Source: a bacterium (lineage in GTDB: Bacteria; Patescibacteriota; Minisyncoccia; Phycocordibacterales; Zambryskibacteraceae). Taken from it: a DNA stretch of 64,000 nucleotides. Positions 1 to 11,559 of the stretch are shown here, in pieces. The DNA lies in NCBI GenBank assembly GCA_030649135.1, contig JAUSGI010000008.1, forward strand, positions 64,001 through 128,000, given 5' to 3'. Position 1 is the stretch's first letter, and each line of letters begins with the position of its first letter. Position numbers and translations under genes: made by a program. Below the pieces are notes generated by a model. That model was not told where the DNA came from and did not search any database. It saw only the letters and a list, made by a program, of their open reading frames with translations.

Positions 1-1941
1 AGTAAAAAGTATTTTAAAAACCAACTCGGTGAATTTATTTATTATCGCACTTATTCCAAATGGATTGAGGATGAGAATCGCAGAGAAACTTGGATAGAGA
101 CTGTCGATAGGTACATGGATTTTATGAAAGAGAATCTTGGACAGAAATTAAAAGATGCCGAATACGCAGAGGTGAGAGAATCTATTTTAAAACAAGAAGC
201 TATGCCGTCTATGCGACTCTTGCAATTTGCGGGCAAGGCCGCTCGGGTAAATAATGTATGCGCGTACAACTGCTCTTATATCGCGCCGGAAGTTTTTCGT
301 GATTTTTCCGAGATTATGTATATCTCGATGTCCGGTACTGGCGCAGGTTGGTCGGTAGAAAGCGAAAATATTCAGAAGTTGCCGCAAATTAAACGTCAGA
401 CCGGTAAGAAACTGCCGACCTTCGTGGTGCCTGATAGTAAAGAAGGGTGGTGCGATGCACTCACGCTAGGTATGGAAACATGGGCAAACGGTTTGGATAT
501 TGATTTTGATTTTTCCCAACTTCGTCCCGCCGGCGCCCGGCTGAAAACTATGGGAGGCAAGTCCTCGGGACCAGAGCCGTTGCGCGAACTCCTGACCTTT
601 ACCAGGAGAAAGATGCTTGCCCGACAAGGCAAGCGGCTGGAAAACATTGATGCCCACGATATTATCTGTGAAATAGGCAATATCGTGGTGGCCGGAGGCG
701 TGCGCCGTAGCGCCATGATTTCCCTCTCCGACCTCGAAGATAGCGCCATTCGTGATGCCAAGAAAGGACAATTTTGGAATACAGACCCGCAGAGAATGCT
801 CGCCAATAACTCTGCCGTGTACGAGACCAAACCGACCAACACCGAATTTGTTGACGAGTGGCTGGCGCTGATGAAGTCCAATTCCGGGGAACGTGGCATT
901 TATAATCGCGGCGGGTTACAGTTTACTTTGCCCAAACGTCGTCTGTCCCAGTTTACTTCCGAGACCATGCCGCGTTGGGGAGGCAATCCGTGCGGAGAAA
1001 TTATTCTGCAGTCAAAACAATTTTGTAATTTATCAGAAATTGTGGCGCGAGCGGAAGATACGGAAGCCACTTTACTGCGCAAACTAAAAGTTGCCACTAT
1101 TCTCGGGACGTATCAGGCATCGCTCACCAATTTTCCGTATCTCTCGAAAGAGTGGCAGGAAAATTGTGAGAAGGAAGCTCTGCTCGGTGTTTCTATCACC
1201 GGTCAGTGGGATTGTCCGGCCGTGCGCAAACCGGCAGTCATGCGAAAATTGCGCGATGAAGCTGTCAAAATAAATAAAGTGTATGCCAAGCGTTTCAGTA
1301 TCAATCAATCTACCTGCGTGACCTGCGTTAAGCCGTCCGGCAATCTTTCTCAAACAGTTGATTCCTCTTCCGGCATTCACCCGCGACATTCCGCATTCTA
1401 CATTCGACGTGTTCGCATTTCCAATACCGATTCACTTTTCAAAATGTTGCGTGACCAAGGTGTACCCTTCCATCCGGAAGTGGGACAAACTATGGAGAAT
1501 GCCACCACCTTCGTTTTGGATTTTCCGGTGAAAGCACCCGACCGCTCGGTCTTTAAAAATGACCAAAGTGCGATTGACCAGCTGGAATACTGGAAAATGG
1601 TGAAAGAAAATTTTACGGAGCATAATCCTTCCACCACTATTTCTATCGGTGATGACGAATGGATAGAAGTGGCAAACTGGATTTATAAAAATTGGGATAT
1701 TGTCGGGGGGCTGGCCTTCCTACCGCGCGAGAGCCATGTCTATAAACTCGCGCCCTATGAGGCCATTGATGAAAAGACATATACCGAGATGAATAAGCGC
1801 TTCGGGAACATTGATTTCTCCAAAATTGTGACCTACGAAGTGACTAACGAGCTTGACCAGAAGGCGGAACTTGCCTGTGTCAGCGGTGTTTGTGATGTTG
1901 ATGCCGTGGGGACATCGGCTGAACCCGGTTCCGTCAAATAG
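1..1941 (+). CDS. nrdJ: Ribonucleotide reductase class II (adenosylcobalamin-dependent), 5' end outside the window
   Basis: The frame is open from nt 1 (SKKYFKNQLGEFIYYRTYSKW...ETWIETVDRY) upstream of the listed ATG at 115. NPCGEI active-site motif and class II RNR-like sequence throughout. Confidence 0.85.
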   Translation, partial: SKKYFKNQLGEFIYYRTYSKWIEDENRRETWIETVDRYMDFMKENLGQKLKDAEYAEVRESILKQEAMPSMRLLQFAGKAARVNNVCAYNCSYIAPEVFRDFSEIMYISMSGTGAGWSVESENIQKLPQIKRQTGKKLPTFVVPDSKEGWCDALTLGMETWANGLDIDFDFSQLRPAGARLKTMGGKSSGPEPLRELLTFTRRKMLARQGKRLENIDAHDIICEIGNIVVAGGVRRSAMISLSDLEDSAIRDAKKGQFWNTDPQRMLANNSAVYETKPTNTEFVDEWLALMKSNSGERGIYNRGGLQFTLPKRRLSQFTSETMPRWGGNPCGEIILQSKQFCNLSEIVARAEDTEATLLRKLKVATILGTYQASLTNFPYLSKEWQENCEKEALLGVSITGQWDCPAVRKPAVMRKLRDEAVKINKVYAKRFSINQSTCVTCVKPSGNLSQTVDSSSGIHPRHSAFYIRRVRISNTDSLFKMLRDQGVPFHPEVGQTMENATTFVLDFPVKAPDRSVFKNDQSAIDQLEYWKMVKENFTEHNPSTTISIGDDEWIEVANWIYKNWDIVGGLAFLPRESHVYKLAPYEAIDEKTYTEMNKRFGNIDFSKIVTYEVTNELDQKAELACVSGVCDVDAVGTSAEPGSVK

Positions 1942-1944
1942 GTA

Positions 1945-2487
1945 ATGCTCTATACTCGCAAGGGGGATAGTGGGACATCGGGGCTTTTCGGCACTAAGGA
2001 GCGTTTCTCGAAGGATAGCCCAATCTATGAAGCGCTCGGTACTCTAGACGAACTTAATTCCCTACTGGGTGTATGTCATGCGTATACCTTGCGTGAGAAA
2101 GAAGGGGGGGTTATGGCCGACGTGATCAGAAATGTTCAGGAACGTCTTTTTGTCGTTCAGGCAGAATTGGCGGGGGCGGATAAATGCATTACACAGACTC
2201 AAGTGGACGAGTTGGAGAAGACGGTAGACCGATATGAGGCGCAGATAGAAAATCCTCATGCCTTTATTATTCCCGGCGCAACAGGGTTGTCGGCTCTGCT
2301 CGACTATGCTCGAGCTGTGTCTCGCAGAGCGGAACGAGTAGTTATTGGAGCACATGCTCCCCACGAAGCGTCGGCTCCCACTAGAGCGTATCTTAATCGT
2401 CTTTCGAGTTTGCTGTATGCCCTGGCTCGGCATGTGGCGGGAAAAGCCGGTGCGCAAGAACCCGCCCCAACGTATAAGGAAGTCTGA
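1945..2487 (+). CDS. ATP:cob(I)alamin adenosyltransferase, PduO-type
   Basis: N-terminus MLYTRKGDSGTSGLFG is typical of PduO/MMAB. 180 aa. Starts 4 nt after the nrdJ stop. Confidence 0.8.
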   Translation: MLYTRKGDSGTSGLFGTKERFSKDSPIYEALGTLDELNSLLGVCHAYTLREKEGGVMADVIRNVQERLFVVQAELAGADKCITQTQVDELEKTVDRYEAQIENPHAFIIPGATGLSALLDYARAVSRRAERVVIGAHAPHEASAPTRAYLNRLSSLLYALARHVAGKAGAQEPAPTYKEV

Positions 2488-2535
2488 TATTTTCTTGATT
2501 CCTCGTCCCTTTTTCGTTATTGTTTCTTTGTTAAA

Positions 2536-2607
2536 GGCCTCATCGTCTAGCGGCTAGGACACAGCCTTCTCAAGGCTGGAACCGGGGTTCGATTCCCCGT
2601 GAGGTCA
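2536..2607 (+). tRNA. tRNA-Glu (anticodon CTC)
   Basis: Manual cloverleaf: acceptor GGCCTCA/TGAGGTC, anticodon stem CAGCC/GGCTG with loop TTCTCAA, T-arm GGGGTTCGATTCCCC. CCA is not encoded. Confidence 0.8.
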
Positions 2608-2744
2608 TACGAGCGGAAAGCACATGAACTGCTTCATGTGCGGGCGAAGTATGAAGACGGAAGCATATTTTTCTATCAAGAAAAATAGCTGAGTCCGGGG
2701 CTGGAAAATCTGCGAGTGGCGACGAGCAGATTATTGTGGCTCAC

Positions 2745-2767
2745 ATAGATTTGCATGCGAAGCATAC
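2745..2767. repeat. Left copy of a 23 bp direct repeat (ATAGATTTGCATGCGAAGCATAC) flanking a two-gene cassette
   Basis: Matches 3494-3516 (ATAGATTTGAATGCGAAGCATAC) at 22/23 positions. Contains a possible -35 TTGCAT. Confidence 0.6.
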
Positions 2768-2791
2768 GTTATTGGTATACAATTTGTACAT

Positions 2792-3199
2792 ATGACCTAC
2801 CTAAGCTACTTAATGGGAGCAGACAATATTGAGGATAAAGAGCTTACTGATTTGGGTATTAGTATTGAGGAGAAAAAGGCTGATGGAGACAGAACACTAA
2901 AGGTTCCAGATGAAAAGTTGAACGGGTACATTGAGTTAATGAAAACCAAGCTGAATAATGGCTTTTGGAATGAGATGGTTGGAGAAAGGGAGATCATCTT
3001 TGTTTTCAAGCTAAAAGATGGCTCAATCAAAGAATATAGGCTTTCACCTGAAAATGAGCAAGAAATTGATAACTTGTGTGCTGAACTGAATAACGAGCTA
3101 CCAGAGAAAACAGTAAATGTTTACAAGTACATTTCAGACAATAAGTTCTACCGTGATTTCATGATGGAACACTATGCTGATTTAATTAATAGAAAATGA
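2792..3199 (+). CDS. Hypothetical protein (135 aa), AT-rich cassette gene 1
   Basis: Long ORF in an AT-rich segment. ATGA overlap with the next ORF. No recognisable motif. Confidence 0.5.
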   Translation: MTYLSYLMGADNIEDKELTDLGISIEEKKADGDRTLKVPDEKLNGYIELMKTKLNNGFWNEMVGEREIIFVFKLKDGSIKEYRLSPENEQEIDNLCAELNNELPEKTVNVYKYISDNKFYRDFMMEHYADLINRK

Positions 3200-3405
3200 A
3201 ATTCCCACCAGAACCAAAAACTCCTTATATTTTGGATAAAGAACAGGATAAACGCATTTTTGAAAAACTCTCCAAATTCAAGAATAAAAAGCTAACTAAA
3301 GGACAGGAGGAGCTGATTGCTTTTCTTTACACACAACTTGAGGACGACTGGAGAACACCCCTTGAGGAGTTCATAGACAAGCTACTCGGAAGCACTCAAG
3401 CCTAA
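3196..3405 (+). CDS. Hypothetical protein (69 aa), AT-rich cassette gene 2
   Basis: Translationally coupled (ATGA overlap) to the ORF at 2792. Confidence 0.45.
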   Translation: MKFPPEPKTPYILDKEQDKRIFEKLSKFKNKKLTKGQEELIAFLYTQLEDDWRTPLEEFIDKLLGSTQA

Positions 3406-3493
3406 CAAAGAACTCTACAAAGGGTTTTGAATCTGATATCGTTAGGGTCACAAAATGTGTAAAGCAGGCAAACTGCTTTGCCTGCGGACATTA

Positions 3494-3516
3494 TAGATTT
3501 GAATGCGAAGCATACA
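3494..3516. repeat. Right copy of the 23 bp direct repeat
   Basis: See 2745-2767. Confidence 0.6.
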
Positions 3517-3546
3517 ATTTTTACCTAAAATAATTCCTTATTTATC

Positions 3547-3586
3547 AATACACAAAAAGCCCGATTGCTCGGGCTTTTTGTGTATT
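3547..3586. terminator. Perfect 18 bp-stem palindrome AATACACAAAAAGCCCGA-TTGC-TCGGGCTTTTTGTGTATT, bidirectional intrinsic terminator candidate
   Basis: GC core stem flanked by an A-run and a T-run. Lies between convergent transcription units. Confidence 0.6.
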
Positions 3587-3600
3587 CGAGTGGCTCACAA

Positions 3601-3693
3601 TTACTTCTTCCCCTCCTCACATCCACAGGCACAAGTACCATTTTCGGTGGTGTGAACATGGTCGCACTTGGAACATTTAGTTTCTTCTGGCAT
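3601..3693 (-). CDS. Small Cys-rich peptide (30 aa) MPEETKCSKCDHVHTTENGTCACGCEEGKK, putative zinc-ribbon mini-protein
   Basis: ORF below the track cutoff. CxxC...CxCxC pattern. Its stop abuts the palindromic terminator. No clear SD. Confidence 0.25.
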   Translation of the reverse strand: MPEETKCSKCDHVHTTENGTCACGCEEGKK

Positions 3694-3974
3694 AGTATAG
3701 TTGTTTAGTATTCTAATATATTCGCCGACCTTTTAAGTATAATATTTTATAGAGAGCAAAGCAATCCGTTTTTTAGTTGTGTATACCTGTATTTTTAAAA
3801 AATTCTTCCGGCGAAAAAGAGAAAACATGGAAAGGCGGAACGGGGCGAGGGCGGGGCGCCTAGTCCACGCGTGCGAAGTGGGTTCGCGCATGGGTTAGAA
3901 TATCCTCACAACTTGATTTTTATATAAAATCGTGTTATTTTGTGTTTAGATAAGTCAAGAGGGGGAAATCTTCC

Positions 3975-4529
3975 ATGAAATCAACTTCCGCTCCAATTCG
4001 TATCACCCAGGCAACCCCAGAAGACGTACTAGGTATGCAGGAAGTCTTCTACAAGACTTGGCTCGCAACTTACCCAAATGTCGAGTACGGTATCACCGTC
4101 GAGGACATCAGGGAGCGTTGGAAAAATCGGCTCGATGATGAGTACCTTGCCAAACGGCGTGAGCAGATGGCCAATCCCCCAATCGGTGAGTTGACTTTAG
4201 CCGCTCGGGATGGAAATCTGGTGGTTGGTGTTTGCCGGGTCATCAATCTTCCCAACAAGAACCAGCTGCAGGCACTTTACGTTCTTCCCGAATATCAAGG
4301 AAGAGGTGTCGGTACCACTTTGTGGGAAGAGGGTCGTAAATTCCTTGACGCTACACGAGACATCGAGGTTTGGGTCGCAACCTACAACACCAAGGCTATC
4401 GCATTTTACCAGCATCTTGGCTTTAGAGAAACGGGAGAGACCGACCTCGACGAACACTTCAAAATGCCTATAAGTGGTAACGTTATCCCGGAGATTGGGA
4501 TGGTGTTGAAGGCAGAACCGGCATCTTAA
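3975..4529 (+). CDS. GNAT family N-acetyltransferase
   Basis: Acetyl-CoA binding motif LYVLPEYQGRGVGTTL. 184 aa. Confidence 0.8.
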   Translation: MKSTSAPIRITQATPEDVLGMQEVFYKTWLATYPNVEYGITVEDIRERWKNRLDDEYLAKRREQMANPPIGELTLAARDGNLVVGVCRVINLPNKNQLQALYVLPEYQGRGVGTTLWEEGRKFLDATRDIEVWVATYNTKAIAFYQHLGFRETGETDLDEHFKMPISGNVIPEIGMVLKAEPAS

Positions 4530-4570
4530 TGGGTGCCGTTTTTCTTTTATTGTATAATATAGAAAATAAT

Positions 4571-4771
4571 ATGAGCCACTTGTTTCGTAGCGATAAATGT
4601 AAAAAATGCGGTGGGGATGCACCCAACTGGAAGTGTCCAAAGTGCGCTAGCACGTCGAGTGTTTTTGACCCATTACATTGGCAGAAATGTCGTTTCGGAG
4701 CAAAATATCAAGCGCAGTGCCAGAAGTGCGGTGAAGCCGAAGATAATTGCACTTGCACAATAGTTTCCTAG
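4571..4771 (+). CDS. Small Cys-rich zinc-ribbon-like protein (66 aa from MSHLF...)
   Basis: CKKCGG...CPKC...CQKCG...CTC. Rubredoxin-like knuckles. The listed ORF at 4529 probably starts at the internal ATG at 4571. Confidence 0.4.
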   Translation: MSHLFRSDKCKKCGGDAPNWKCPKCASTSSVFDPLHWQKCRFGAKYQAQCQKCGEAEDNCTCTIVS

Positions 4772-4782
4772 TTTTTAAATTT

Positions 4783-6534
4783 TTACGGTCGTGCCGGCGG
4801 AGGGGCTTCCCTATCCGGCTGGATATCATAGTAGTTGATGAGAAACTTGGCGGTATTAACAAAGGTGTCTGTTAAGGTTTCCGAGGCGTATTGAACATTC
4901 TTGGGATAATAAGTATAGAGAAACACTAGGAATTCCGGGTCATAGGATGGGAAATAGCCGAAGAATGAGTGAAGGTAACGGTCATCATAATATCCTCCTA
5001 CCTCTGGTCTTGCGATTTGGGCGGTGCCTGTTTTGGCGGCAATATTGTAGTTCTCAAGTCGAACTTGACCATAGTGGAGAGAACGGTCCACCACTTCCGT
5101 GAGCATGCGCGATATTTCCGCCGAAGTATCGGGAGAAAGGACGCGTGCTCTCTCTTCCTCCGGGGGATAGAGAATATTTTTGGTGGGCCCAAGTTCATAT
5201 CTAATTCCCTTGACCAAGTGGGGGGTGATGAGCGTGCCACCATTGGCCAGAGCCGAGAGCGCGCGTACGGTAATGATGGGGGTGAGCGCAATACCTTGGC
5301 CGAAAGAGGCCTGCGCCAGTTCAAGGTCGCGGCCGGTTTTGAGATTGGAGACCAGGGATTTACCCTCGTTTGGCAGGTCAATGCCGGTAGTAGTTTCGAG
5401 GCCGAAGCGAAGCATGTAGTCGCTGAATTTTGCGTTACCCATACGAGAGACTACGAAGGCGGCACCGGTATTGAGAGAGTTATTAAGTACTGCCTGCATG
5501 GAAAGACCGGAGCCATGAGATTTGCCGTCATAGTTGCAGAAAGTTCTGGTATTGAGTGTCATACAGCCCGGGTCGTTATAAGTGCTTCTAGCTGTGATGG
5601 CGCCAGAGTCGATGCCAGCCGACATAGTCAGCGCTTTCAGGATTGAACCCATTTCGTACCTATCTTCTATCAATCTGTTACTAAAAATAGCCGCATAACG
5701 CTCGCTTTGTGGGGAATTTGGGTCGAAGGAGGGAGTTAATGCCATGGCGTATATTTCTCCCGTTTTGGGATTAATCACTATGCCGCCGGTAAAGTCGGAG
5801 GAATATTTCTCGGTTACTTTTTTTATCTCGCTCTCGAGATATGCTTCGACCGATGGTTCGATGGTGGTGACTATATCTCCTTCGAAACTCTCATCTTCGC
5901 TGACAGCTTTCTTTATACTGGAAAAAATCTCGGCGAAAAAATTGACGAAAACATCGTCACCGCTTCTCTTTAGTACAGACTCATAGAAACGTTCCAATCC
6001 GTAGCGCCCGGCAAGTTCGTCTCCGCTATAACCAATGAGTCCTACGGTATGGGCCGCTATGGTTTGGCCTGGATAGGTACGCCATCTTTCCTTAGCGACG
6101 GAGAGGCCGGAAATTTTAAGCGCTTGGATTTTATCCGCTTGTTCTGTCGGTAGGCGTTTCGCCAGCTCCTCGTATGGGTCATTTTTTTTACCGACTTTGG
6201 CAAAGAAGTCTTCTTTGACAACTGGCGTAATGGTGTTGACGGTTTCGTAAATATTTTCTAAGTCGGTACGCTGACTCAGCATACTCGGGTTGATATAAAG
6301 AATAAACCCGGTCTTAATACCGGCCGCCGGTACGAGCGTACCATCTTTAGCGGTGAAAAAGATTAGTCCCCGGTCAAAGTAATTTATTCCGGCAACGTAC
6401 TGATGCTCCGCTTTGGCTTCGAAATCTTCCCCCGATATTATCTGGATAAAATAAAGTTTGCTAACAAGCAGAAGAGCGCTTAACAGTACGAAAAGCGACA
6501 GGAGTCGTAATCTGTTCTGAAGCCCATGCATCAA
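4783..6534 (-). CDS. ftsI: Peptidoglycan D,D-transpeptidase, PBP2/FtsI family
   Basis: N-terminal TM helix. SxxK (SILK), SLN and KTGT motifs. Position after ftsL in the dcw cluster. Confidence 0.85.
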   Translation of the reverse strand: MMHGLQNRLRLLSLFVLLSALLLVSKLYFIQIISGEDFEAKAEHQYVAGINYFDRGLIFFTAKDGTLVPAAGIKTGFILYINPSMLSQRTDLENIYETVNTITPVVKEDFFAKVGKKNDPYEELAKRLPTEQADKIQALKISGLSVAKERWRTYPGQTIAAHTVGLIGYSGDELAGRYGLERFYESVLKRSGDDVFVNFFAEIFSSIKKAVSEDESFEGDIVTTIEPSVEAYLESEIKKVTEKYSSDFTGGIVINPKTGEIYAMALTPSFDPNSPQSERYAAIFSNRLIEDRYEMGSILKALTMSAGIDSGAITARSTYNDPGCMTLNTRTFCNYDGKSHGSGLSMQAVLNNSLNTGAAFVVSRMGNAKFSDYMLRFGLETTTGIDLPNEGKSLVSNLKTGRDLELAQASFGQGIALTPIITVRALSALANGGTLITPHLVKGIRYELGPTKNILYPPEEERARVLSPDTSAEISRMLTEVVDRSLHYGQVRLENYNIAAKTGTAQIARPEVGGYYDDRYLHSFFGYFPSYDPEFLVFLYTYYPKNVQYASETLTDTFVNTAKFLINYYDIQPDREAPPPARP

Positions 6535-6536
6535 TT

Positions 6537-6860
6537 TTAGCGACTAAGTGTGTTGAACGAAAGGGATGTCACGCTCGTACGGGAAACATAAAGTGGCTTC
6601 TTAGCTTCTCGAAAGCCGTGCTGATACGCGAGCTCAAGGGAGACGTTATTCTTAAGTTCGATGTAGTCAAACTCGAGCGAACCAAGATTAGCCGAGATTT
6701 TAGCCATCTGCCTCTCCAGGTTTTGTCTGGTGGCAATATTTCTTGCGGTGGCATGTATGGCGTAGATATAGGCAAAGAGAGATAGTATCGATATAGCTAC
6801 TAAAATCCAGAAAACACGGGCTCGGTGGTCGTAGGAAATTGTTTTTGTCTTGTGTATCAT
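6537..6860 (-). CDS. ftsL: Cell division protein FtsL-like (small bitopic membrane protein)
   Basis: 107 aa. Single TM plus coiled region. Lies between rsmH and ftsI. Confidence 0.5.
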   Translation of the reverse strand: MIHKTKTISYDHRARVFWILVAISILSLFAYIYAIHATARNIATRQNLERQMAKISANLGSLEFDYIELKNNVSLELAYQHGFREAKKPLYVSRTSVTSLSFNTLSR

Positions 6861-7717
6861 ATTTTCTCTATAACTCGTAACTTGGCACTGCGCGAACGTG
6901 GGTTGTTCATCGTCTCTTCTTCGCTTGCTGTTATCGGTTTTTTGGTTATTTGCCTGGCGGATTTTTCCTTTATTTTTTCCCGGAAGAAATTCTTGACTAT
7001 TCGGTCTTCTAAGCTATGGAAGGAGATAACCACCAATCTGCCTTGATGTCCGAGAGCTTCAAACCCTTTCTCCAGTCCGACCTCTAGACTGGAAAGCTCT
7101 TCGTTCGTCGCGATTCGGAGAGCTTGGAAAGTCTTGGTGGCGGGGTGAATTTTGTCCCGAAAGCTTCTGTGTTTTACCGTCTCCACCACCCTAACAAGGT
7201 CGAATGTGGTTTGAAACGGTTTGACCTTTCTTTGTTCCACAATGGCTCTTGCAATTTTTCCGGATAACCTCTCTTCTCCGAAGCCGCGCAGGATGAGTTC
7301 AATGGCGTGCTCATCCCAGGAGTTTAAAATGTCGGCGGCTCGGATGCCTGTGTTAGACATTCTCATGTCCAGAGGTTCGTCTCTAAGAAAAGAGAATCCT
7401 CTGCCGGAGCGCTCGAGCTGGTCGGTGGAAATACCGAGGTCAAAGAGGATGGCGTCAACCTTTTGGGTTACGACTTTGTCCAAGTCTCTGAAGTTTGCTC
7501 GGGTTACATCTACCTTCGGGTCTTGGTCGATGGCGATTACCTTTACTGTCGGGAATCGCCTTCTCACTTCCTTGCTATGTCCCCCGCCGCCATAAGTGGC
7601 GTCGAGGAATATTTCCCCAGACTTGAGGTCGAGAGCATTAATGCTTTCGTGTAAAAGAACAGGTTTATGCATATTCTGACTCGAGTCGTTTTCTATAGGC
7701 CGACCAGCTTGAGGCAT
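6857..7717 (-). CDS. rsmH: 16S rRNA (cytosine1402-N4)-methyltransferase RsmH/MraW
   Basis: HKPVLL...LDATYGGGGHS motif typical of MraW. Confidence 0.9.
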   Translation of the reverse strand: MPQAGRPIENDSSQNMHKPVLLHESINALDLKSGEIFLDATYGGGGHSKEVRRRFPTVKVIAIDQDPKVDVTRANFRDLDKVVTQKVDAILFDLGISTDQLERSGRGFSFLRDEPLDMRMSNTGIRAADILNSWDEHAIELILRGFGEERLSGKIARAIVEQRKVKPFQTTFDLVRVVETVKHRSFRDKIHPATKTFQALRIATNEELSSLEVGLEKGFEALGHQGRLVVISFHSLEDRIVKNFFREKIKEKSARQITKKPITASEEETMNNPRSRSAKLRVIEKI

Positions 7718-8060
7718 TCCAGATTTCCACCCTGTCGTGAACGCCGGTAATAACGACTGGGTTTTTCAGGTCCGCAAACTCCCGCAAAAATTCGGGGACC
7801 AGAATTCTGCCTATAGAATCGATCTCAACTTCAGATGCACCGGAGAAAGTGAATCGTGCATAGCGATGGTCACTTTCTACATGCCCAAGTTTCCCCACCT
7901 CTTCGGAGATTTGAACCCAGGTTTTGTGGGGGTAGAGAAAAAGACAATGATCTTTGCCTCGAGTAACAACGACTTTGCTACCGAGAGCTTTTCGGAATTT
8001 GGCAGGCAAAGAGAAGCGATTCTTCTCGTCAACTGTATGTGTGTACTCGCCGATAAACAT
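7665..8060 (-). CDS. mraZ: Transcriptional regulator MraZ
   Basis: MFIGEYTHTVDEKNRFSLP...TRGKDHCLFLYP. Duplicated MraZ domain. 131 aa. Confidence 0.9.
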   Translation of the reverse strand: MFIGEYTHTVDEKNRFSLPAKFRKALGSKVVVTRGKDHCLFLYPHKTWVQISEEVGKLGHVESDHRYARFTFSGASEVEIDSIGRILVPEFLREFADLKNPVVITGVHDRVEIWNASSWSAYRKRLESEYA

Positions 8061-8132
8061 TGTTTTTTCATATTACCACTATTTCCCACTAACAAACATT
8101 CTATACCACCACATTCCACAACACTACTAAAG

Positions 8133-8162
8133 TTATCCCCTTTTTATCCCCTCCTTATCCCC
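8133..8162 (-). promoter_or_regulatory. Three direct repeats of GGGGATAA (minus-strand sense) at 11 bp period upstream of mraZ, candidate MraZ-binding boxes
   Basis: TTATCCCC at 8133, 8144 and 8155 on the plus strand, about 75-100 bp upstream of the mraZ ATG. Resembles the arrangement of MraZ repeats in other bacteria. Confidence 0.45.
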
Positions 8163-8173
8163 AATACTAAAAA

Positions 8174-8196
8174 TGTCAAACACCAGGTGTTTGACA
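8174..8196. promoter_or_regulatory. Perfect 23 bp palindrome TGTCAAACACC-A-GGTGTTTGACA in the mraZ upstream region
   Basis: 11+1+11 inverted repeat containing TTGACA. Operator-like. Confidence 0.4.
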
Positions 8197-8233
8197 CAAT
8201 ATAATTCTGAAATAGAGAAAGCCTCACACAGAG

Positions 8234-8256
8234 AAGCCATGCTTGGCTTTTTCTAT
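8234..8256. terminator. Hairpin AGCCA-TGCT-TGGCT followed by TTTTTCTAT, terminator candidate
   Basis: Lies 27 nt past the stop of the minus-strand gene 8283..8513. A T-run is present in the plus sense and a U-rich tract in the minus sense. Confidence 0.35.
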
Positions 8257-8282
8257 GCGAGGCCTACCGCTCGTGGTGGTCG

Positions 8283-8513
8283 TTAGAGCGACCAGTCCAT
8301 GCCTGGCATCCTCTGGTCCCGATCGTCCTCCGTGACCGCCTGAGCATTGGCAGGGACGAGATCCCATTCCCTCGGGACATCGTCGCCGATGCCGAGACCA
8401 GGGCAGTCGGGTTTCGTCACGAAGATGTAGGTTTCTCCTACCTTCCTGGCAAGTCCTCCCCCCTGCGTTCCGTAAATACCGAAGTTGTAGGTACAACCTT
8501 TCTTGGTATTCAT
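8283..8513 (-). CDS. Hypothetical small protein (76 aa) in a GC-rich islet
   Basis: Strong SD (AAGGGAGACCA-ATG). Consensus promoter TTGACA-17-TAAGAT upstream. Locally GC-rich versus flanks. Confidence 0.5.
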   Translation of the reverse strand: MNTKKGCTYNFGIYGTQGGGLARKVGETYIFVTKPDCPGLGIGDDVPREWDLVPANAQAVTEDDRDQRMPGMDWSL

Positions 8514-8563
8514 TGGTCTCCCTTCTTCCGAAGTTATCTACCGCTATCTTATCATACTACTAC

Positions 8564-8614
8564 TTATATGTCAAGGATAGCTTTTTTAGCGTTGGATTGG
8601 ATAAAGGATTTACG
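8564..8614 (-). repeat. Duplicate of the gyrB 3' terminus (encodes ...RKSFIQSNAKKAILDI*), left copy
   Basis: 51 bp with about 85-90% identity to 9604-9654 (gyrB ...RKSFIQSNAKKAVLDV*), same orientation. Confidence 0.65.
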
Positions 8615-8727
8615 GTAGTAATAATTCTTGGTTTACTTTATTCATTAGTAGGTCTTGAGTGACTCGTTACTTTTGTGTTGGCAGTCATATTAGCTAAACA
8701 GATAGAGATACTTAACAAGTTGGACAG

Positions 8728-8916
8728 ATGATTAGTCATGTTCTACAAAATATCATTCTATTTTTTAGTTTAGTTGGTATATGGCACCTTATACTTTTAA
8801 TTCTTAGCAACACACAAAACAAAGAAACATTTAAAGTTGACGTTAAACCAGAATTAGCAGGAATTTTATTATTGTTGTTTGTGATTGTGCTTCTATCTTT
8901 ATCTGGAGAGTTATAG
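8728..8916 (+). CDS. Hypothetical small membrane protein (62 aa)
   Basis: Hydrophobic ORF in the AT-rich insert. Weak RBS. Confidence 0.25.
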   Translation: MISHVLQNIILFFSLVGIWHLILLILSNTQNKETFKVDVKPELAGILLLLFVIVLLSLSGEL

Positions 8917-9047
8917 TGATTAGGTTATCCACACCTATCCCCTAAAAATTGGCTATTTGCTCTCCATATTACTTTCATAGTATAGTATGGGTGTGTCTGC
9001 GGGACGTCAGTCCTATCTAGCCAAATATTGCGCTGGAGACAGGCACA

Positions 9048-9422
9048 CTAAAGGATGTCGCTTATGGCGGCATTTTTTAGTGTCTCATCGTCATCGGAAG
9101 ATCGTAGCCCTTTTCCAGTAGATGTTTGTATCATTTTTATATCCCTATATTGTTTAGTGAACCATGCTGGTACAACACTTAGGAATTCAATAGCACCGTT
9201 ACCTTCTTGTGTTACTACGACTTTTACACGGAATTTCTGCACTATGGCTACAAAACCCCAACAACGGATAACGACATTCATTGGCACCCAAAGTCCTCTC
9301 CGATTTACTTTCTTGTAAACGATTTCCTCATCGTATTCTTGAAATGTAGTAGACGTCTCAAGTATGAATTTCGCCTTCTCAAGCATGTCAAAACGAAGTA
9401 TTTGCGCTCTTTTATCTCTCAT
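9048..9422 (-). CDS. Hypothetical protein (124 aa) in the AT-rich insert
   Basis: GGAG 11 nt before the ATG. An in-frame TAA lies 36 codons upstream, preceded by a 24-codon ORF in the same frame. Confidence 0.4.
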   Translation of the reverse strand: MRDKRAQILRFDMLEKAKFILETSTTFQEYDEEIVYKKVNRRGLWVPMNVVIRCWGFVAIVQKFRVKVVVTQEGNGAIEFLSVVPAWFTKQYRDIKMIQTSTGKGLRSSDDDETLKNAAISDIL

Positions 9423-9603
9423 TTTCTTTGGCGCTCCATAAACAAGGTGGTTAAACCCCTCTGATGTAAAACGAATTTCCTGACCAAGTGCAGGACAGTT
9501 TACAGAAATAAATGTTTTTTAAAGTGCTGCGGCTTCCCGTTTTATCTGTTCATAGTCTGCAACACGCTCTTCTATTGATTTTTTGTCTGTCATTTTATAA
9601 AAA

Positions 9604-11559
9604 TCACACGTCTAAAACGGCTTTTTTAGCGTTTGATTGGATGAAAGATTTGCGGGAAGGGACGTCGGTGCCCATGAGAATGTCGAAAATACGGTCCGCT
9701 TCTCTCGCATCCACAACAGTTACTTGTTTAAGAATTCTCGCTTTTGGATCCATGGTTGTTTCCCAAAGTTCTTCCGAGTTCATTTCCCCGAGACCTTTAT
9801 AACGTTGGATGTCGGCGCCTTCGATAGTCTTCTCGTTTTTTTCTTCGTCGGAATAGACATAAATAATTTCTTTCCCTTTTTTGATTTTATAGAGCGGCGG
9901 TTGAGCGATGTAGACATAGCCGGCATCGATGAGCGGTCTGAAAAATCTATAAAGTAATGTCAAGAGTAGAGTACGGATATGCGCGCCATCAACATCGGCA
10001 TCGGTGGCAATAATAATTTTGTGATAACGGAGTTTAGTGATATCAAAAGTATCCCCTATTGCCGTGCCGAAGGCGATGACTAGGTTTTTAATCTGTTCGC
10101 TCGCGAGCATCTTATCTAGACGCGCGCGCTCAATATTGAGAATCTTACCGCGCAAAGGGAGTATGGCTTGGATGCGTCTGTCTCTTCCCATCTTGGCGGT
10201 ACCGCCAGCCGAATCTCCCTCAACGATAAAGAGCTCTGCTTCTTCTGGGGTAGTGCCAGACTGGCAATCAGAGAGTTTGCCAGGCAGAGTCATGCCCTCA
10301 AGCGCTCCTTTGCGCAGGACTGAGTCCTTGGCCGCCTTGGCGGCTTTGCGCGCCTTGAGCGCGAGTACCACCTTCTGAATCATACTTCTGGCATCATCGG
10401 GATTTTCCTCAAGATAGGCAGAGAATGCGTCACCGAAGACGGTATTAACCATGCTCTGGGCCTCCACGCTACCGAGTTTTGATTTGGTCTGTCCCTCAAA
10501 TTGAATCTCACGCAATTTAATCGAAATGACAGCAGTCAGACCCTCGAGCGCGTCATCTCCGGTGAAGTTATCCTCCTTTTCACTCACCATATTATTCTTG
10601 CGGGCGTATGAATTTAGACTTCTGGTCAGGGCAGTCTTGAAACCGGTAACGTGAGTACCGCCTTCAGTAGTGTAAATATTATTGGCGAAAGGCAGGATGC
10701 GGGAAGAGATATCATCGACATATTGCAGGGCCACCTCCACTGTCTCGTAGTCGTTACCGTTCGCCTTCTTCTCAACATAGAAAATATTTTTATGTATCGG
10801 TTTGTTTCGCTCATTTTCGAATCGTACGAGAGATACCAGTCCCCCTTCGAAATAAAAAGACATGGAAGGTGTTTCCAGTCCCAACTCTCGTAGATAAAAG
10901 ACTTCGCTATCGGCAACTTTTGCTATCCCTCGGGCATCCAGGACCGATATGCGGAGACCCTTGACGAGATATGCCTGCTGGCGCAAATGATCGGCAATCC
11001 GTTCGAAGTTGAAGTTGGTATCCGGGAAAATAGCGGGGTCCGGTTGAAAGGTAATGACGGTACCATGGAGTTTTGAGGCGCCAATTTTCTTGACTGCACT
11101 TTTTCTTTTGCCCTGGCTGTACTCTTGAGCATAAACTCCCCCATCTCGGTGCACTTCGGCCCGGCAATAAATAGAGAGAGCATTGACTACCGAGCCACCG
11201 ACGCCGTGTAGTCCTCCGGAGATTTTGTATCCCTCTCCGCCGAACTTGCCGCCGGCATGCAGGGTAGTCATGATGGTCTCGAGTGCCGAGACTTTGGTTT
11301 GTTTGTGCGTATCAACCGGAATACCCCGGCCGTTATCAACCACGCGGACACGATTGTTGGGCAAGAGCACAACCTCTATATCGTCGGCAAATCCCCCCAT
11401 GGCCTCATCCCGAGAGTTGTCGAAAATCTCCGTCACAAGGTGGTGGAGGCCGTCGGGACCGGTGGTACCGATATACATGCCTGGACGTTTGCGCACCGGC
11501 TCGAGACCCTCTAAGACCGTAATTGATTCAGCGCTGTAATTGCTCTCTTTTTTCGGCAT
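9604..11559 (-). CDS. gyrB: DNA gyrase subunit B
   Basis: GHKL ATPase motifs (LVTEIFDNSRDEAM, GLHGVGGSVVNALS). Toprim and C-terminal domains. 651 aa. Confidence 0.95.
   Translation of the reverse strand: MPKKESNYSAESITVLEGLEPVRKRPGMYIGTTGPDGLHHLVTEIFDNSRDEAMGGFADDIEVVLLPNNRVRVVDNGRGIPVDTHKQTKVSALETIMTTLHAGGKFGGEGYKISGGLHGVGGSVVNALSIYCRAEVHRDGGVYAQEYSQGKRKSAVKKIGASKLHGTVITFQPDPAIFPDTNFNFERIADHLRQQAYLVKGLRISVLDARGIAKVADSEVFYLRELGLETPSMSFYFEGGLVSLVRFENERNKPIHKNIFYVEKKANGNDYETVEVALQYVDDISSRILPFANNIYTTEGGTHVTGFKTALTRSLNSYARKNNMVSEKEDNFTGDDALEGLTAVISIKLREIQFEGQTKSKLGSVEAQSMVNTVFGDAFSAYLEENPDDARSMIQKVVLALKARKAAKAAKDSVLRKGALEGMTLPGKLSDCQSGTTPEEAELFIVEGDSAGGTAKMGRDRRIQAILPLRGKILNIERARLDKMLASEQIKNLVIAFGTAIGDTFDITKLRYHKIIIATDADVDGAHIRTLLLTLLYRFFRPLIDAGYVYIAQPPLYKIKKGKEIIYVYSDEEKNEKTIEGADIQRYKGLGEMNSEELWETTMDPKARILKQVTVVDAREADRIFDILMGTDVPSRKSFIQSNAKKAVLDV

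Follow-up and report, generated by a model that had tools for sequence, protein, structure and literature searches.

Direct repeats beside a tRNA-Glu gene in Parcubacteria: probable 3' tails of a conserved structured element that trails the tRNA

The question raised by this locus is why two copies of a 23-nt sequence should lie close behind a tRNA-Glu gene, one on either side of a pair of small genes. In the 64,000-nt stretch of DNA analysed here (the window), the first copy (ATAGATTTGCATGCGAAGCATAC, 2745-2767, plus strand) begins, as originally described, 138 nt past the end of the tRNA-Glu gene (anticodon CUC, CCA not encoded), which ARAGORN places at 2536-2607 on the plus strand and which scores 58.5 bits with the Rfam tRNA model. 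The second (ATAGATTTGAATGCGAAGCATAC, plus strand) does match the first at 22/23 positions, but its true location is 3493-3515, one base away from the coordinates 3494-3516 first given for it. With up to 3 mismatches allowed, these are the only two matches on both strands of the 64 kb, and none is found in 100 dinucleotide shuffles. Several other features reported for the interval are also present: two coupled genes of 135 and 69 aa with an ATGA overlap between the repeats, an AT-rich composition of the bracketed DNA (GC 0.32-0.40 vs ~0.47 in the surroundings), an internal ATGC-GAA-GCAT palindrome, which in the repeat takes the form of a mini-hairpin containing GCGAAGC, a perfect palindrome (18+4+18) at 3547-3586, and a 30-aa Cys-rich ORF at 3601-3693 on the minus strand. 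The original prediction read the repeats as att-like ends of a small integrated cassette, or else as a duplicated promoter module. We consider it likely that both 23-mers are instead the 3' tails of a conserved structured element trailing tRNA-Glu, a trailer RNA that would be cotranscribed with the tRNA in a region of gene turnover.

The repeated unit exceeds the 23-mer. A hairpin at 2617-2643 is 70% identical to one at 3461-3487, with compensatory changes between the two, and 12 nt past each 23-mer (AATTTKTACMTA, 2781-2792 and 3516-3527) are also repeated. Copy 1 is a complete element (2605-2767), fused to tRNA-Glu(CUC) and matched by cmsearch at 2607-2767 with 170.5 bits. It begins with hairpin P1 (2605-2654, plus strand, from the MFE fold), whose basal pairs borrow the last bases of the tRNA (TCA 2605-2607, paired with the TGA of a conserved TGAAG), and continues with hairpin P2/P3 (2658-2697, plus strand), which carries a conserved 3' bulge, GAG, and hairpin P4 (2698-2742, plus strand), closed by GGGCU/GGCUC with G.U pairs; P2/P3 and P4 are both defined by folding and covariation, the latter also by an excess of G.U pairs, and the first 23-mer is the conserved 3' tail. 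In helices 1 and 2, compensatory changes are seen at 13/13 pairs. Copy 2 (3448-3515, plus strand; cmsearch 3451-3515, 45.1 bits, E 3e-10, and blastn), of which the second 23-mer is the tail, is a relic without P2-P4: in comparison with locus L035 (loci are designated by L and a number) ~97 nt, corresponding to P2-P4, are absent, while P1 is identical at 45/45 positions. The P1 arms are GCACATGAA/TTCATGTGC in copy 1 and GCAGGCAAA/TTTGCCTGC in copy 2; four pairs differ and all four are compensated, and therefore the two copies are not a fresh duplication of the kind expected of att sites.

Copy 2 is preceded by a 52-nt segment (3399-3450, plus strand) ending in TAGGGTCA, which by blastn is common to L002, L004 and L024 (3399-3486 is 87.5% identical to L002). 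This segment is possibly a decayed 3' part of tRNA-Glu; the match is weak, being reached by 47/500 shuffles for the window and 8/500 for L002. On the other side of copy 2, the palindrome at 3547-3586 has, in sequence and fold, the features of a bidirectional intrinsic terminator (A-run, GC hairpin, T-run), with arms AAAAAGCCCGA-TTGC-TCGGGCTTTTT of 18 nt each that are 100% complementary around a 4-nt loop; its T-run sits inside the extended stem, which is why a simple scan overlooks it. It probably ends both the transcript of ORF1-ORF2-copy 2 and that of the 30-aa ORF on the minus strand. A terminator hairpin is also found 3' of the element in L035 and L037. Farther downstream, positions 3793-3915 (plus strand) appear, from sequence identity, to be what is left of a stretch that in L035 lies ahead of the element and comprises GC-rich non-coding DNA and a -10 segment: 3793-3869 matches L035 3695-3621 at 85.7% identity, and 3870-3915 is ~69% identical by eye. 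This vestige ends in TCACAA and then runs into a GNAT gene.

The same element, 105-250 nt long, is present as ~28 distinct copies/loci in Parcubacteria (Zambryskibacteria and Minisyncoccia relatives). This set derives from a motif scan, which returned 4 genomes and ~28 metagenome contigs, with the addition of loci fetched through ORF1 and PduO. The exact motif has one match in each of the four matching Parcubacteria-type species genomes, and there are 1-2 copies per locus. The common parts are the three covarying hairpins (P1, P2/P3 and P4), the joints TGAAG, GAG bulge and GGGG, and the tail with its GCGAAGC mini-hairpin. The near-invariance of the 23-mer among L014-L049 is partly built in, because an exact 19-base pattern was used to retrieve these loci; among independently fetched relatives the 5' half of the tail is changed (TAAATCAGCATGCGAAGCATAC in L053, TAGATTGCGAGTGCGAAGCATTC in L056). 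From a MAFFT alignment RNAalifold derives 40 pairs, 26 of them with compensatory changes. In a second alignment, of 26 distinct sequences, which was fitted to the model and therefore favours the structure, 97.1% of the cells are paired and both sides change in 31/40 pairs. The covariation score is 0.46, vs 0.15 for shuffles (0/500 reach the observed value) and 0.06-0.09 for slid controls. Fold z-scores range from -4.3 to -6.5. The folded strand is the tRNA strand: read on that strand the alignment has 57 G.U cells vs 8 A.C cells, and standard pairs amount to 97.1% on the plus strand vs 91.5% on the minus strand. Single-stranded DNA, too, could form such hairpins, with G.T pairs.

We could not assign the element to any class already described. 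With the covariance models of Rfam 15 only the tRNA passes; all other scores are at most 23 bits, far below threshold. SRP RNA, RNase P RNA, tmRNA, 6S and 5S RNA, riboswitches and ribozymes were each set aside, as neither Rfam nor ARAGORN supports them and by eye the architecture does not fit. A coding function was considered as well and rejected: the ORFs that cover the element lack conservation or are short. One of 70-79 aa is called across the element in L002 and L004, but it is not kept elsewhere, a 1-nt indel within it separates L002 from L004, and stems and tail carry 1-nt indels; another small reading frame, which would begin with the ATG of the tail (MRSI...), is conserved for no more than four residues. 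By inspection the tail has no consistent complementarity to the 5' strand of P1 or to tRNA-Glu, and a literature search for tRNA-Glu-linked RNAs in Parcubacteria returned nothing relevant. From its sequence and covariation, then, what we have is a previously undescribed folded, RNA-like element of small groundwater bacteria.

The association with tRNA-Glu is exact. At ~20 loci the element begins at the base after the discriminator of the tRNA: at 14 loci the end of the tRNA-Glu (UUC or CUC) called by ARAGORN is 0-5 nt from the cmsearch start, in L015, which was outside the ARAGORN scan, a complete tRNA-Glu(UUC) can be recognized by eye in front of the element, and in five cut contigs the tRNA 3' end is visible in the same position. 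No promoter-like box occurs between tRNA and element. Copies without a tRNA are preceded by TATAAT-GGGTCA followed by C (L020 and L004) or TATGAT-TTCATCA followed by C (L027 and L035). L054 has a tRNA-Glu(CUC) without element, and therefore the element is dispensable for tRNA-Glu as such.

These observations suggest how the element might be expressed. The tRNA promoter would drive tRNA-Glu and element as one transcript, out of which RNase P and RNase Z would free the tRNA, leaving the 105-250 nt trailer as a separate stable RNA with its end at or just past ...GCGAAGCAUAC. The conserved, mostly single-stranded tail may be the part recognised by a protein or by another RNA. In the tRNA-less copies the -10 box appears to be positioned for a transcription start at the same first base. 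Copy 2 of the window, which has no such -10 box, is probably the mere 3' end of the ORF1-ORF2 transcript, stopping at 3547-3586; since it has no usable promoter, the tiny transcript that the original prediction derived from the second repeat is unsupported.

Precedents exist for a tRNA and a second RNA in one transcript. In plant tRNA-snoRNA genes and in MALAT1-mascRNA, RNase P and RNase Z set the end of a second structured RNA; the Parcubacteria locus would resemble them in having one precursor with a tRNA and a structured RNA, if the processing that we propose takes place, and differs from those eukaryotic cases, which involve known RNA classes, in that the element matches no Rfam class. The 3'ETS-leuZ of the E. 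coli glyW-cysT-leuZ operon is a short RNA that acts as a sponge via Hfq and base pairing. In the bacteria that carry the element, Hfq is generally absent. Like 3'ETS-leuZ, the element is encoded directly 3' of a tRNA, and by analogy it may be released by precursor processing and have a function of its own; unlike 3'ETS-leuZ, which is not known to have a multi-helix covarying structure, it is 105-250 nt long with 3-4 conserved helices. The term 3'ETS-leuZ appears in PMC6191717.

There remains the matter of the two genes between the copies. ORF1 (2792-3199, plus strand; 135 aa) encodes a conserved Parcubacteria protein with a ferredoxin-like core, which is widespread in the group, in many chromosomal contexts and with an exchangeable downstream partner. 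ORF2 (3196-3405, plus strand; 69 aa, 45 homologs), whose start overlaps the ORF1 stop codon (ATGA), is the variable gene here: homologs also occur without ORF1, and in L002 a RibD_C gene takes its place between conserved flanks. Ahead of ORF1 an extended -10-like box, TGgTATACA (2773-2781, plus strand), can be read from the sequence as a putative promoter; it is homologous to TGgTATATAAT 3' of the element in L053 and is absent from the output of a simple promoter scan. The ORFs of positions 1-8000 are RNR, PduO, ORF1, ORF2, the 30-aa ORF, GNAT, zn80, PBP, FtsL, RsmH and MraZ. In L053, the closest syntenic relative (PduO 80% identical), tRNA-Glu(CUC) and one element are followed directly by zn80, with no ORF1, ORF2 or GNAT gene at the site; the intervening genes are thus variable content beside a tRNA gene, as had been proposed. 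The genes that follow the element vary by locus (NUDIX-like, TsaD, zn80, a membrane protein and others), and other two-copy loci enclose other cargo: in L046 this is a YafQ-type toxin pair, in L004 and L020 an unknown protein of 155-162 aa. A link to an origin of replication was considered and rejected: the GC skew changes sign near 8 kb, but weakly and in a terminus-like direction. We propose that the two copies came to flank ORF1-ORF2 through gene gain, loss and rearrangement just 3' of the element: the bracketing would arise because the DNA behind the element undergoes frequent turnover, not through site-specific integration.

A more specific version of these events is that a segment composed of ORF1, a variable gene X, the 52 nt and an element recombined into a resident tRNA-Glu-element locus without a dedicated integrase, either as a circular piece that entered by one crossover or by homology-assisted insertion, with the tail and the 12 nt as crossover homology that would be functionally att-like. 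The linkage of ORF1, X, the 52 nt and the element is common to L002, L004 and L024, homology past both tails extends over the 12 nt of AATTTKTACMTA, copies 1 and 2 have differing P1 types, as expected from two sources, the block is missing in L053, and further loci have two copies around variable cargo. On the other hand the shared homology amounts to only ~35 nt, we found neither a circular form nor a recombinase nor another case with these junctions, the tRNA remnant in front of copy 2 is statistically weak, and a tandem duplication of tRNA-Glu and trailer followed by decay and gene shuffling fits the order equally well. Overall we regard this route as a serious but rather unlikely one.

The element could also act in cis on the next gene, as a structured 5' cap that protects or marks the mRNA or as a terminator/insulator between the tRNA and an operon. 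Such a role would agree with the position of the next gene, which lies nearby on the same strand in 19/29 copies (18/28, with starts 16-257 nt past the tail, plus L053), and with the T-runs that roughly half of the loci have 3' of the tail. We nevertheless consider it unlikely: the downstream genes have -10 boxes of their own, behind the element in L035, L037 and window copy 2 comes a terminator instead of a gene, and a terminator would need less than three covarying helices and conserved joints.

Two further explanations deserve mention. According to the first, the trailer is a landmark that guides or tolerates recurrent capture and swapping of small genes right behind its conserved tail through a host enzyme encoded elsewhere, as an integrase-less, integron-like hotspot in the streamlined genomes of Parcubacteria; here the recognition or crossover site would be the folded strand, either as RNA or as single-stranded DNA with the GCGAAGC mini-hairpin. 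Like integron attC sites and the ends of IS200/IS605 elements with their TnpB/IscB guide RNAs, the element is structured and strand-specific, with a sharp, conserved boundary beside variable DNA. Unlike them it has no IntI, TnpA, TnpB or IscB gene nearby (IntI, TnpA and TnpB-type Pfam domains are missing from the annotated neighbours, and the copy number is low), it exists in few copies at a fixed place behind tRNA-Glu, and the DNA that varies next to it is made up of complete genes that carry promoters of their own. We judge this explanation very doubtful. Slightly more doubtful still is the second, in which the element acts as single-stranded DNA that folds into a signal for priming or recombination, with GCGAAGC, a classic, extraordinarily stable DNA mini-hairpin (PMC13037366), at its centre. 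The d(GCGAAGC) mini-hairpins are reported at single-strand priming sites of phages and plasmids and at promoters of the N4 virion RNA polymerase (PMC13037366), and the tail does hold an exact GCGAAGC within ATGC-GAA-GCAT (stem of 4-6 bp, GAA loop); moreover, the pairing asymmetry tells only which strand folds, and variable genes adjoin the element. Unlike those signals, however, the tail ends a tRNA-fused, covarying and apparently RNA-level chromosomal structure; no primase, HUH or integron-integrase gene lies nearby, each locus has just 1-2 copies, and the exact fusion to the tRNA 3' end, together with the -10 boxes set for a start at the first base, points to RNA.

Both readings of the original prediction are hard to credit. 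That a site-specific recombinase inserted a small element at tRNA-Glu, with the repeats as attL and attR, would suit direct repeats that adjoin a tRNA gene, AT-rich DNA between them and genes missing at the L053 site, and the locus resembles tRNA-integrated islands and prophages in having repeats by a tRNA that flank genes absent in a close relative. Unlike such islands, however, it has no integrase (no integrase or recombinase domain is encoded within 1-8000), and its 23-mers, the first of which starts 138 nt past the tRNA, do not overlap that gene, although the segment before copy 2 may be a decayed tRNA-Glu 3' part. A comparison of the DNA 3' of tRNA-Glu, which had been suggested as a check, finds in L053 a full element, not a short core, without ORF1 and ORF2: the 23-mer is the 3' end of a structured element, a family-wide motif kept in genomes without the two genes. 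Relatives therefore carry as a single copy what was thought to mark an insertion, essentially the situation that had been named as speaking for a conserved repeat. The search for both proteins in phage and plasmid databases that had been suggested earlier, here extended to the DNA, gave no mobile-element similarity: neither ORF1 nor ORF2 has a significant match in PHROG or PADLOC (best E 0.11 and 0.015), viral contigs give 0 matches, and phage/plasmid blastn matches the tRNA only. The divergence of the copies, with P1 altered by four compensatory pairs, and the wide conservation of ORF1 in many chromosomal contexts of Parcubacteria also argue against integration. Equally implausible is the idea that a promoter module of the sigma-70 type was duplicated, in which TTGCAT/TTGAAT would be the -35-like box. 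One may cite for it the TATACA box 19 nt past the TTGCAT of copy 1 and the same-strand gene that in most loci begins 16-120 nt past the tail, but it fails because the scan calls no site at either copy, the 16-18 nt past TTGMAT are unrelated among homologs and mostly not -10-like (not TAnnnT), leaving no -10 box at a conserved spacing in the window or the homologs, the downstream genes own extended -10 boxes at variable distance, the TTG is entirely missing in L053, and the motif lies within the covarying structure. A candidate for copy 2, TTGAAT-17-TAGGGT, was discarded: TAGGGT comes after a spacer of 10 nt, and at 17 nt the sequence is ACAAAA.

Parcubacteria and the candidate-phyla-radiation in general have tiny genomes, and to our knowledge almost no non-coding RNAs have been described in them beyond the universal ones. 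If the trailer interpretation is true, the lineage would possess a functional RNA of its own, a multi-helix molecule fused base to base to tRNA-Glu and preserved across many compensatory changes, and its covariance model would provide a handle for the search for partners and for the study of tRNA precursor processing in uncultured organisms. It would also serve as a caution that short direct repeats by tRNA genes can be the ends of a conserved RNA element and not att sites, and it would mark the DNA behind the element as a site where small genes are gained and lost.

Both of the 23-nt direct repeats reported in the original prediction are present next to the tRNA-Glu(CUC) gene (2536-2607) and are identical at 22 of 23 positions; the first lies at 2745-2767 and the second at 3493-3515, the coordinate given earlier for the latter being one base too high. 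Even when up to 3 mismatches are allowed, neither strand of the window has a further match to them, and 100 shuffles gave none. The remainder of that observation is confirmed: the interval between the repeats is AT-rich (GC 0.32-0.40), the two genes that it holds, ORF1 (2792-3199, 135 aa) and ORF2 (3196-3405, 69 aa), have reading frames overlapping by ATGA, and a 40-nt perfect palindrome is found at 3547-3586. The repeated unit exceeds the 23-mer, as a repeat finder identified 12 additional nt repeated directly after each copy, and a hairpin (2617-2643 vs 3461-3487) with 70% identity between the copies, in which the two arms have changed together.

Two loci reached through homologs of ORF1 (L002, L004) carry the same 23-mer in one occurrence, at the end of a GC-rich, hairpin-rich stretch of ~250 nt whose 5' part is the same hairpin as in the window. 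Species genomes and metagenome contigs were scanned for GATTTGNATGCGAAGCATAC, yielding respectively 5 and 31 loci, three of which (L016, L031, L038) are chance or coding matches. In most true matches the first base of the element directly follows the discriminator of a tRNA-Glu gene (anticodon UUC or CUC), as recognized by ARAGORN in 14 loci and by eye in L015, and as also seen in five contigs that are cut inside the tRNA. The usual order is tRNA-Val(GAC), tRNA-Ser(CGA), tRNA-Glu with the element, variable genes, and then often TsaD; tRNA-Glu(CUC) occurs without the element in L054. Since loci L014-L049 were fetched with the tail of the element itself, ascertainment accounts in part for how little the 23-mer as a whole varies, and further relatives were fetched through the upstream PduO gene to avoid that bias. 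Because the tails of L053 (TAAATCAGCATGCGAAGCATAC) and L056 (TAGATTGCGAGTGCGAAGCATTC, with a mini-hairpin GAGUGC-GAA-GCAUUC in which one pair is compensated) differ, the truly conserved core of the tail, as judged from these sequences, is GCGAAGCAT. A promoter-like stretch is kept before tRNA-Glu(CUC) (TTGATT, 17 nt, TATTGT or TATTCT; window 2490-2535, L053 4866-4920, L002 4085-4110), which with 8 of 12 matches falls under the threshold of the promoter scan.

The element begins with a long hairpin, P1, whose basal pairs join the last TCA of the tRNA to the TGA of a conserved TGAAG. It is followed by P2/P3, in which a GAG bulge is conserved, by GGGG, by a variable and in some cases long P4, and by the tail YRTAGATTTGMATGCGAAGCATAC. 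From ten copies aligned with MAFFT, RNAalifold derived a structure of 40 pairs, of which 26 show compensatory changes. A covariance model of the element (R1) recognized exactly two copies in the window, at 2607-2767 (170.5 bits) and 3451-3515 (45.1 bits), and additional copies without the exact 23-mer, in a short 112-nt form, in L020, L046, L004 and L024. Across 26 distinct sequences 97.1% of the cells are paired and both sides have changed in 31 of the 40 pairs, with a covariation score of 0.46 vs 0.15 in shuffles (0/500 reach 0.46) and 0.06-0.09 with slid partners; this alignment was fitted to the model and leans toward the structure, the MAFFT result being an independent check. There are 57 G.U cells vs 8 A.C cells, and the folded strand is therefore that of the tRNA. 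Single-sequence folds beat their shuffles (z = -4.3 to -6.5), no conserved ORF runs over the element, and nothing but tRNA was matched by Rfam 15 in the window, L002, L017, L027, L035 and L037. Overall, these analyses show that the structure fused to tRNA-Glu is conserved, covaries and is specific to one strand; the window holds two copies of it, one degenerate. Tandem duplication of the P4 module and tail start (CCGGGGCTGGAAAAT-hairpin-ATTATTGTGGCTCAC) is seen inside one element in L018 (3990-4101); L022 and L047 retain only P4 and the tail, behind an unrelated insert able to pair with the tRNA 3' end.

Copy 1 (2605-2767), which is fused to the tRNA, has all parts of the element, and copy 2 (3448-3515) comprises only P1 and the tail. 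The P1 of copy 2 matches that of L035 at 45/45 positions; in comparison with L035, copy 2 lacks about 97 nt (P2-P4). Four base pairs differ between the apical P1 stems of copy 1 and copy 2 (GCACATGAA/TTCATGTGC vs GCAGGCAAA/TTTGCCTGC), all compensated; the copies are therefore old paralogs or of different sources, and not a recent duplication. The second copy could have arrived by recombination, through the tail, of a module formed by ORF1, a variable coupled gene and the element, or by duplication and decay. The 52 nt before it are common to L002-type loci, end in TAGGGTCA and weakly resemble the 3' part of tRNA-Glu (shuffles reaching this level: 47/500 for the window, 8/500 for L002). No credible promoter was found for copy 2, which is probably transcribed by read-through from ORF1-ORF2, stopping at the palindrome, a bidirectional terminator; a terminator stands behind the element in L035 and L037 too. 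Two copies surround differing cargo in four loci: in the window it is ORF1-ORF2, in L046 a YafQ-type toxin pair, and in L004 as well as L020 a protein of 155-162 aa. The L046 cargo (551-996) lies on the opposite strand and consists of a YafQ/RelE-type toxin gene (Pfam E 1e-8) and, upstream of it, a partner of 59 aa.

At least 269 homologs of ORF1, at 65-89% identity, occur in Azambacteria, Yanofskybacteria and other Parcubacteria; their chromosomal contexts differ, and often they lie directly behind a tRNA gene (Gln in L006, Asn in L008-L011, also Glu). In most contexts an ATGA-coupled gene follows, its identity depending on the genome (RibD_C, SET, a PRK-type kinase, or ORF2); the contexts compared were the window (2792-3405), L002, L006, L008 and L012, and L008-L011 have no coupled gene. 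The DNA of the window is 89.8% identical to that of L002 over 2790-3202, the similarity being interrupted where ORF2 replaces RibD_C and resuming at 3399; the swap is exact from the ORF1 stop to this position. ORF2 has 45 homologs, some without ORF1. The structure model of ORF1 is confident (pLDDT 93.8), and its fold matches only generic ferredoxin-like domains. A Cys-rich 30-aa ORF (3601-3693, minus strand; CxxC...CxCxC) has no homolog in the fetched loci; an 80-aa protein (4529-4771, plus strand; gene zn80) has several CxxC pairs, ends similarly (NCTCT), and is kept beside the element in L028, L029, L043 (64% identity in these three) and L053. No Pfam or NCBIfam family matches either of them.

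L053, the closest syntenic relative (PduO 80% identical), has the flanks of the window, RNR-PduO on one side and zn80, PBP, FtsL, RsmH, MraZ and GyrB on the other. These flanks enclose a broken 5' half of tRNA-Glu(UUC) containing hairpin inserts, a gene of the GIY-YIG type, tRNA-Glu(CUC) in intact form, and a single short element with zn80 right behind it; ORF1, ORF2, copy 2, the 30-aa ORF and the GNAT gene are therefore either additions in the lineage of the window or losses in L053. In this part of L053 (4921-5400), the tRNA-Glu(UUC) half, at the position of the window's tRNA-Glu, has two hairpin-rich inserts in its D-arm region, then the gene for the 81-aa GIY-YIG nuclease, with the intact tRNA 490 nt further on; it resembles a tRNA gene that was broken or invaded, possibly an intron or homing-endonuclease event. 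Downstream genes vary from locus to locus, and the DNA that lies behind the element is subject to turnover. A GC-rich non-coding region without long ORF or Rfam match precedes the element in L035 (3520-4290, minus strand, up to ~770 nt) and, shorter, in L027 (upstream of 1535); it holds two similar units (CACCACGCA...GGAGCGTRC), a 77-nt piece survives in the window (3793-3915 region, 85.7% identical), and it could represent a further structured RNA or the remains of a gene. GC skew in the window is positive to ~8 kb and negative beyond, a weak signal whose switch has a terminus-like sign. A stretch of GC ~0.31 (~8550-9000) separates mraZ (7665-8060, minus) from a 651-aa ORF (9604-11559, minus), for which synteny with L053 and L003 makes gyrB the probable identity; the ~7900-9600 region could be a replication landmark.

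Action of the element as single-stranded DNA is formally possible, because its tail contains GCGAAGC, a classic very stable DNA mini-hairpin (PMC13037366), but is less likely. We reject the repeats as att sites of an integrated cassette: no recombinase gene is present in 1-8000, tRNA is the sole match in phage and plasmid collections, the motif of the element is absent from the viral contigs searched, and ORF1 and ORF2 belong to no family in Pfam, PHROG, NCBIfam or PADLOC. The proposal is retained in so far as it sees variable, inserted content next to the tRNA. Nor are they a duplicated promoter module, as the promoter scan gave no site at either repeat, no -10 box after TTGMAT (the -35-like hexamer of the 23-mer) is conserved across homologs, and the genes that follow carry extended -10 boxes of their own, at distances that vary (TGgTATACA for ORF1, TGgTATATAAT in L053, TGaTATACT in L019 and L020). 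In tRNA-less copies an upstream -10 box is positioned for a start at the first base of the element (TATAAT-GGGTCA/C, TATGAT-TTCATCA/C, slash before the start), which supports a defined 5' end for a putative RNA.

As an RNA, the element would be co-transcribed with tRNA-Glu, released from the precursor by tRNA processing, and might then act separately through its conserved tail. Among known kinds, the functional tRNA 3' external transcribed spacer comes closest; this class is structurally unlike the element. The result of interest is a candidate new tRNA-Glu trailer RNA.
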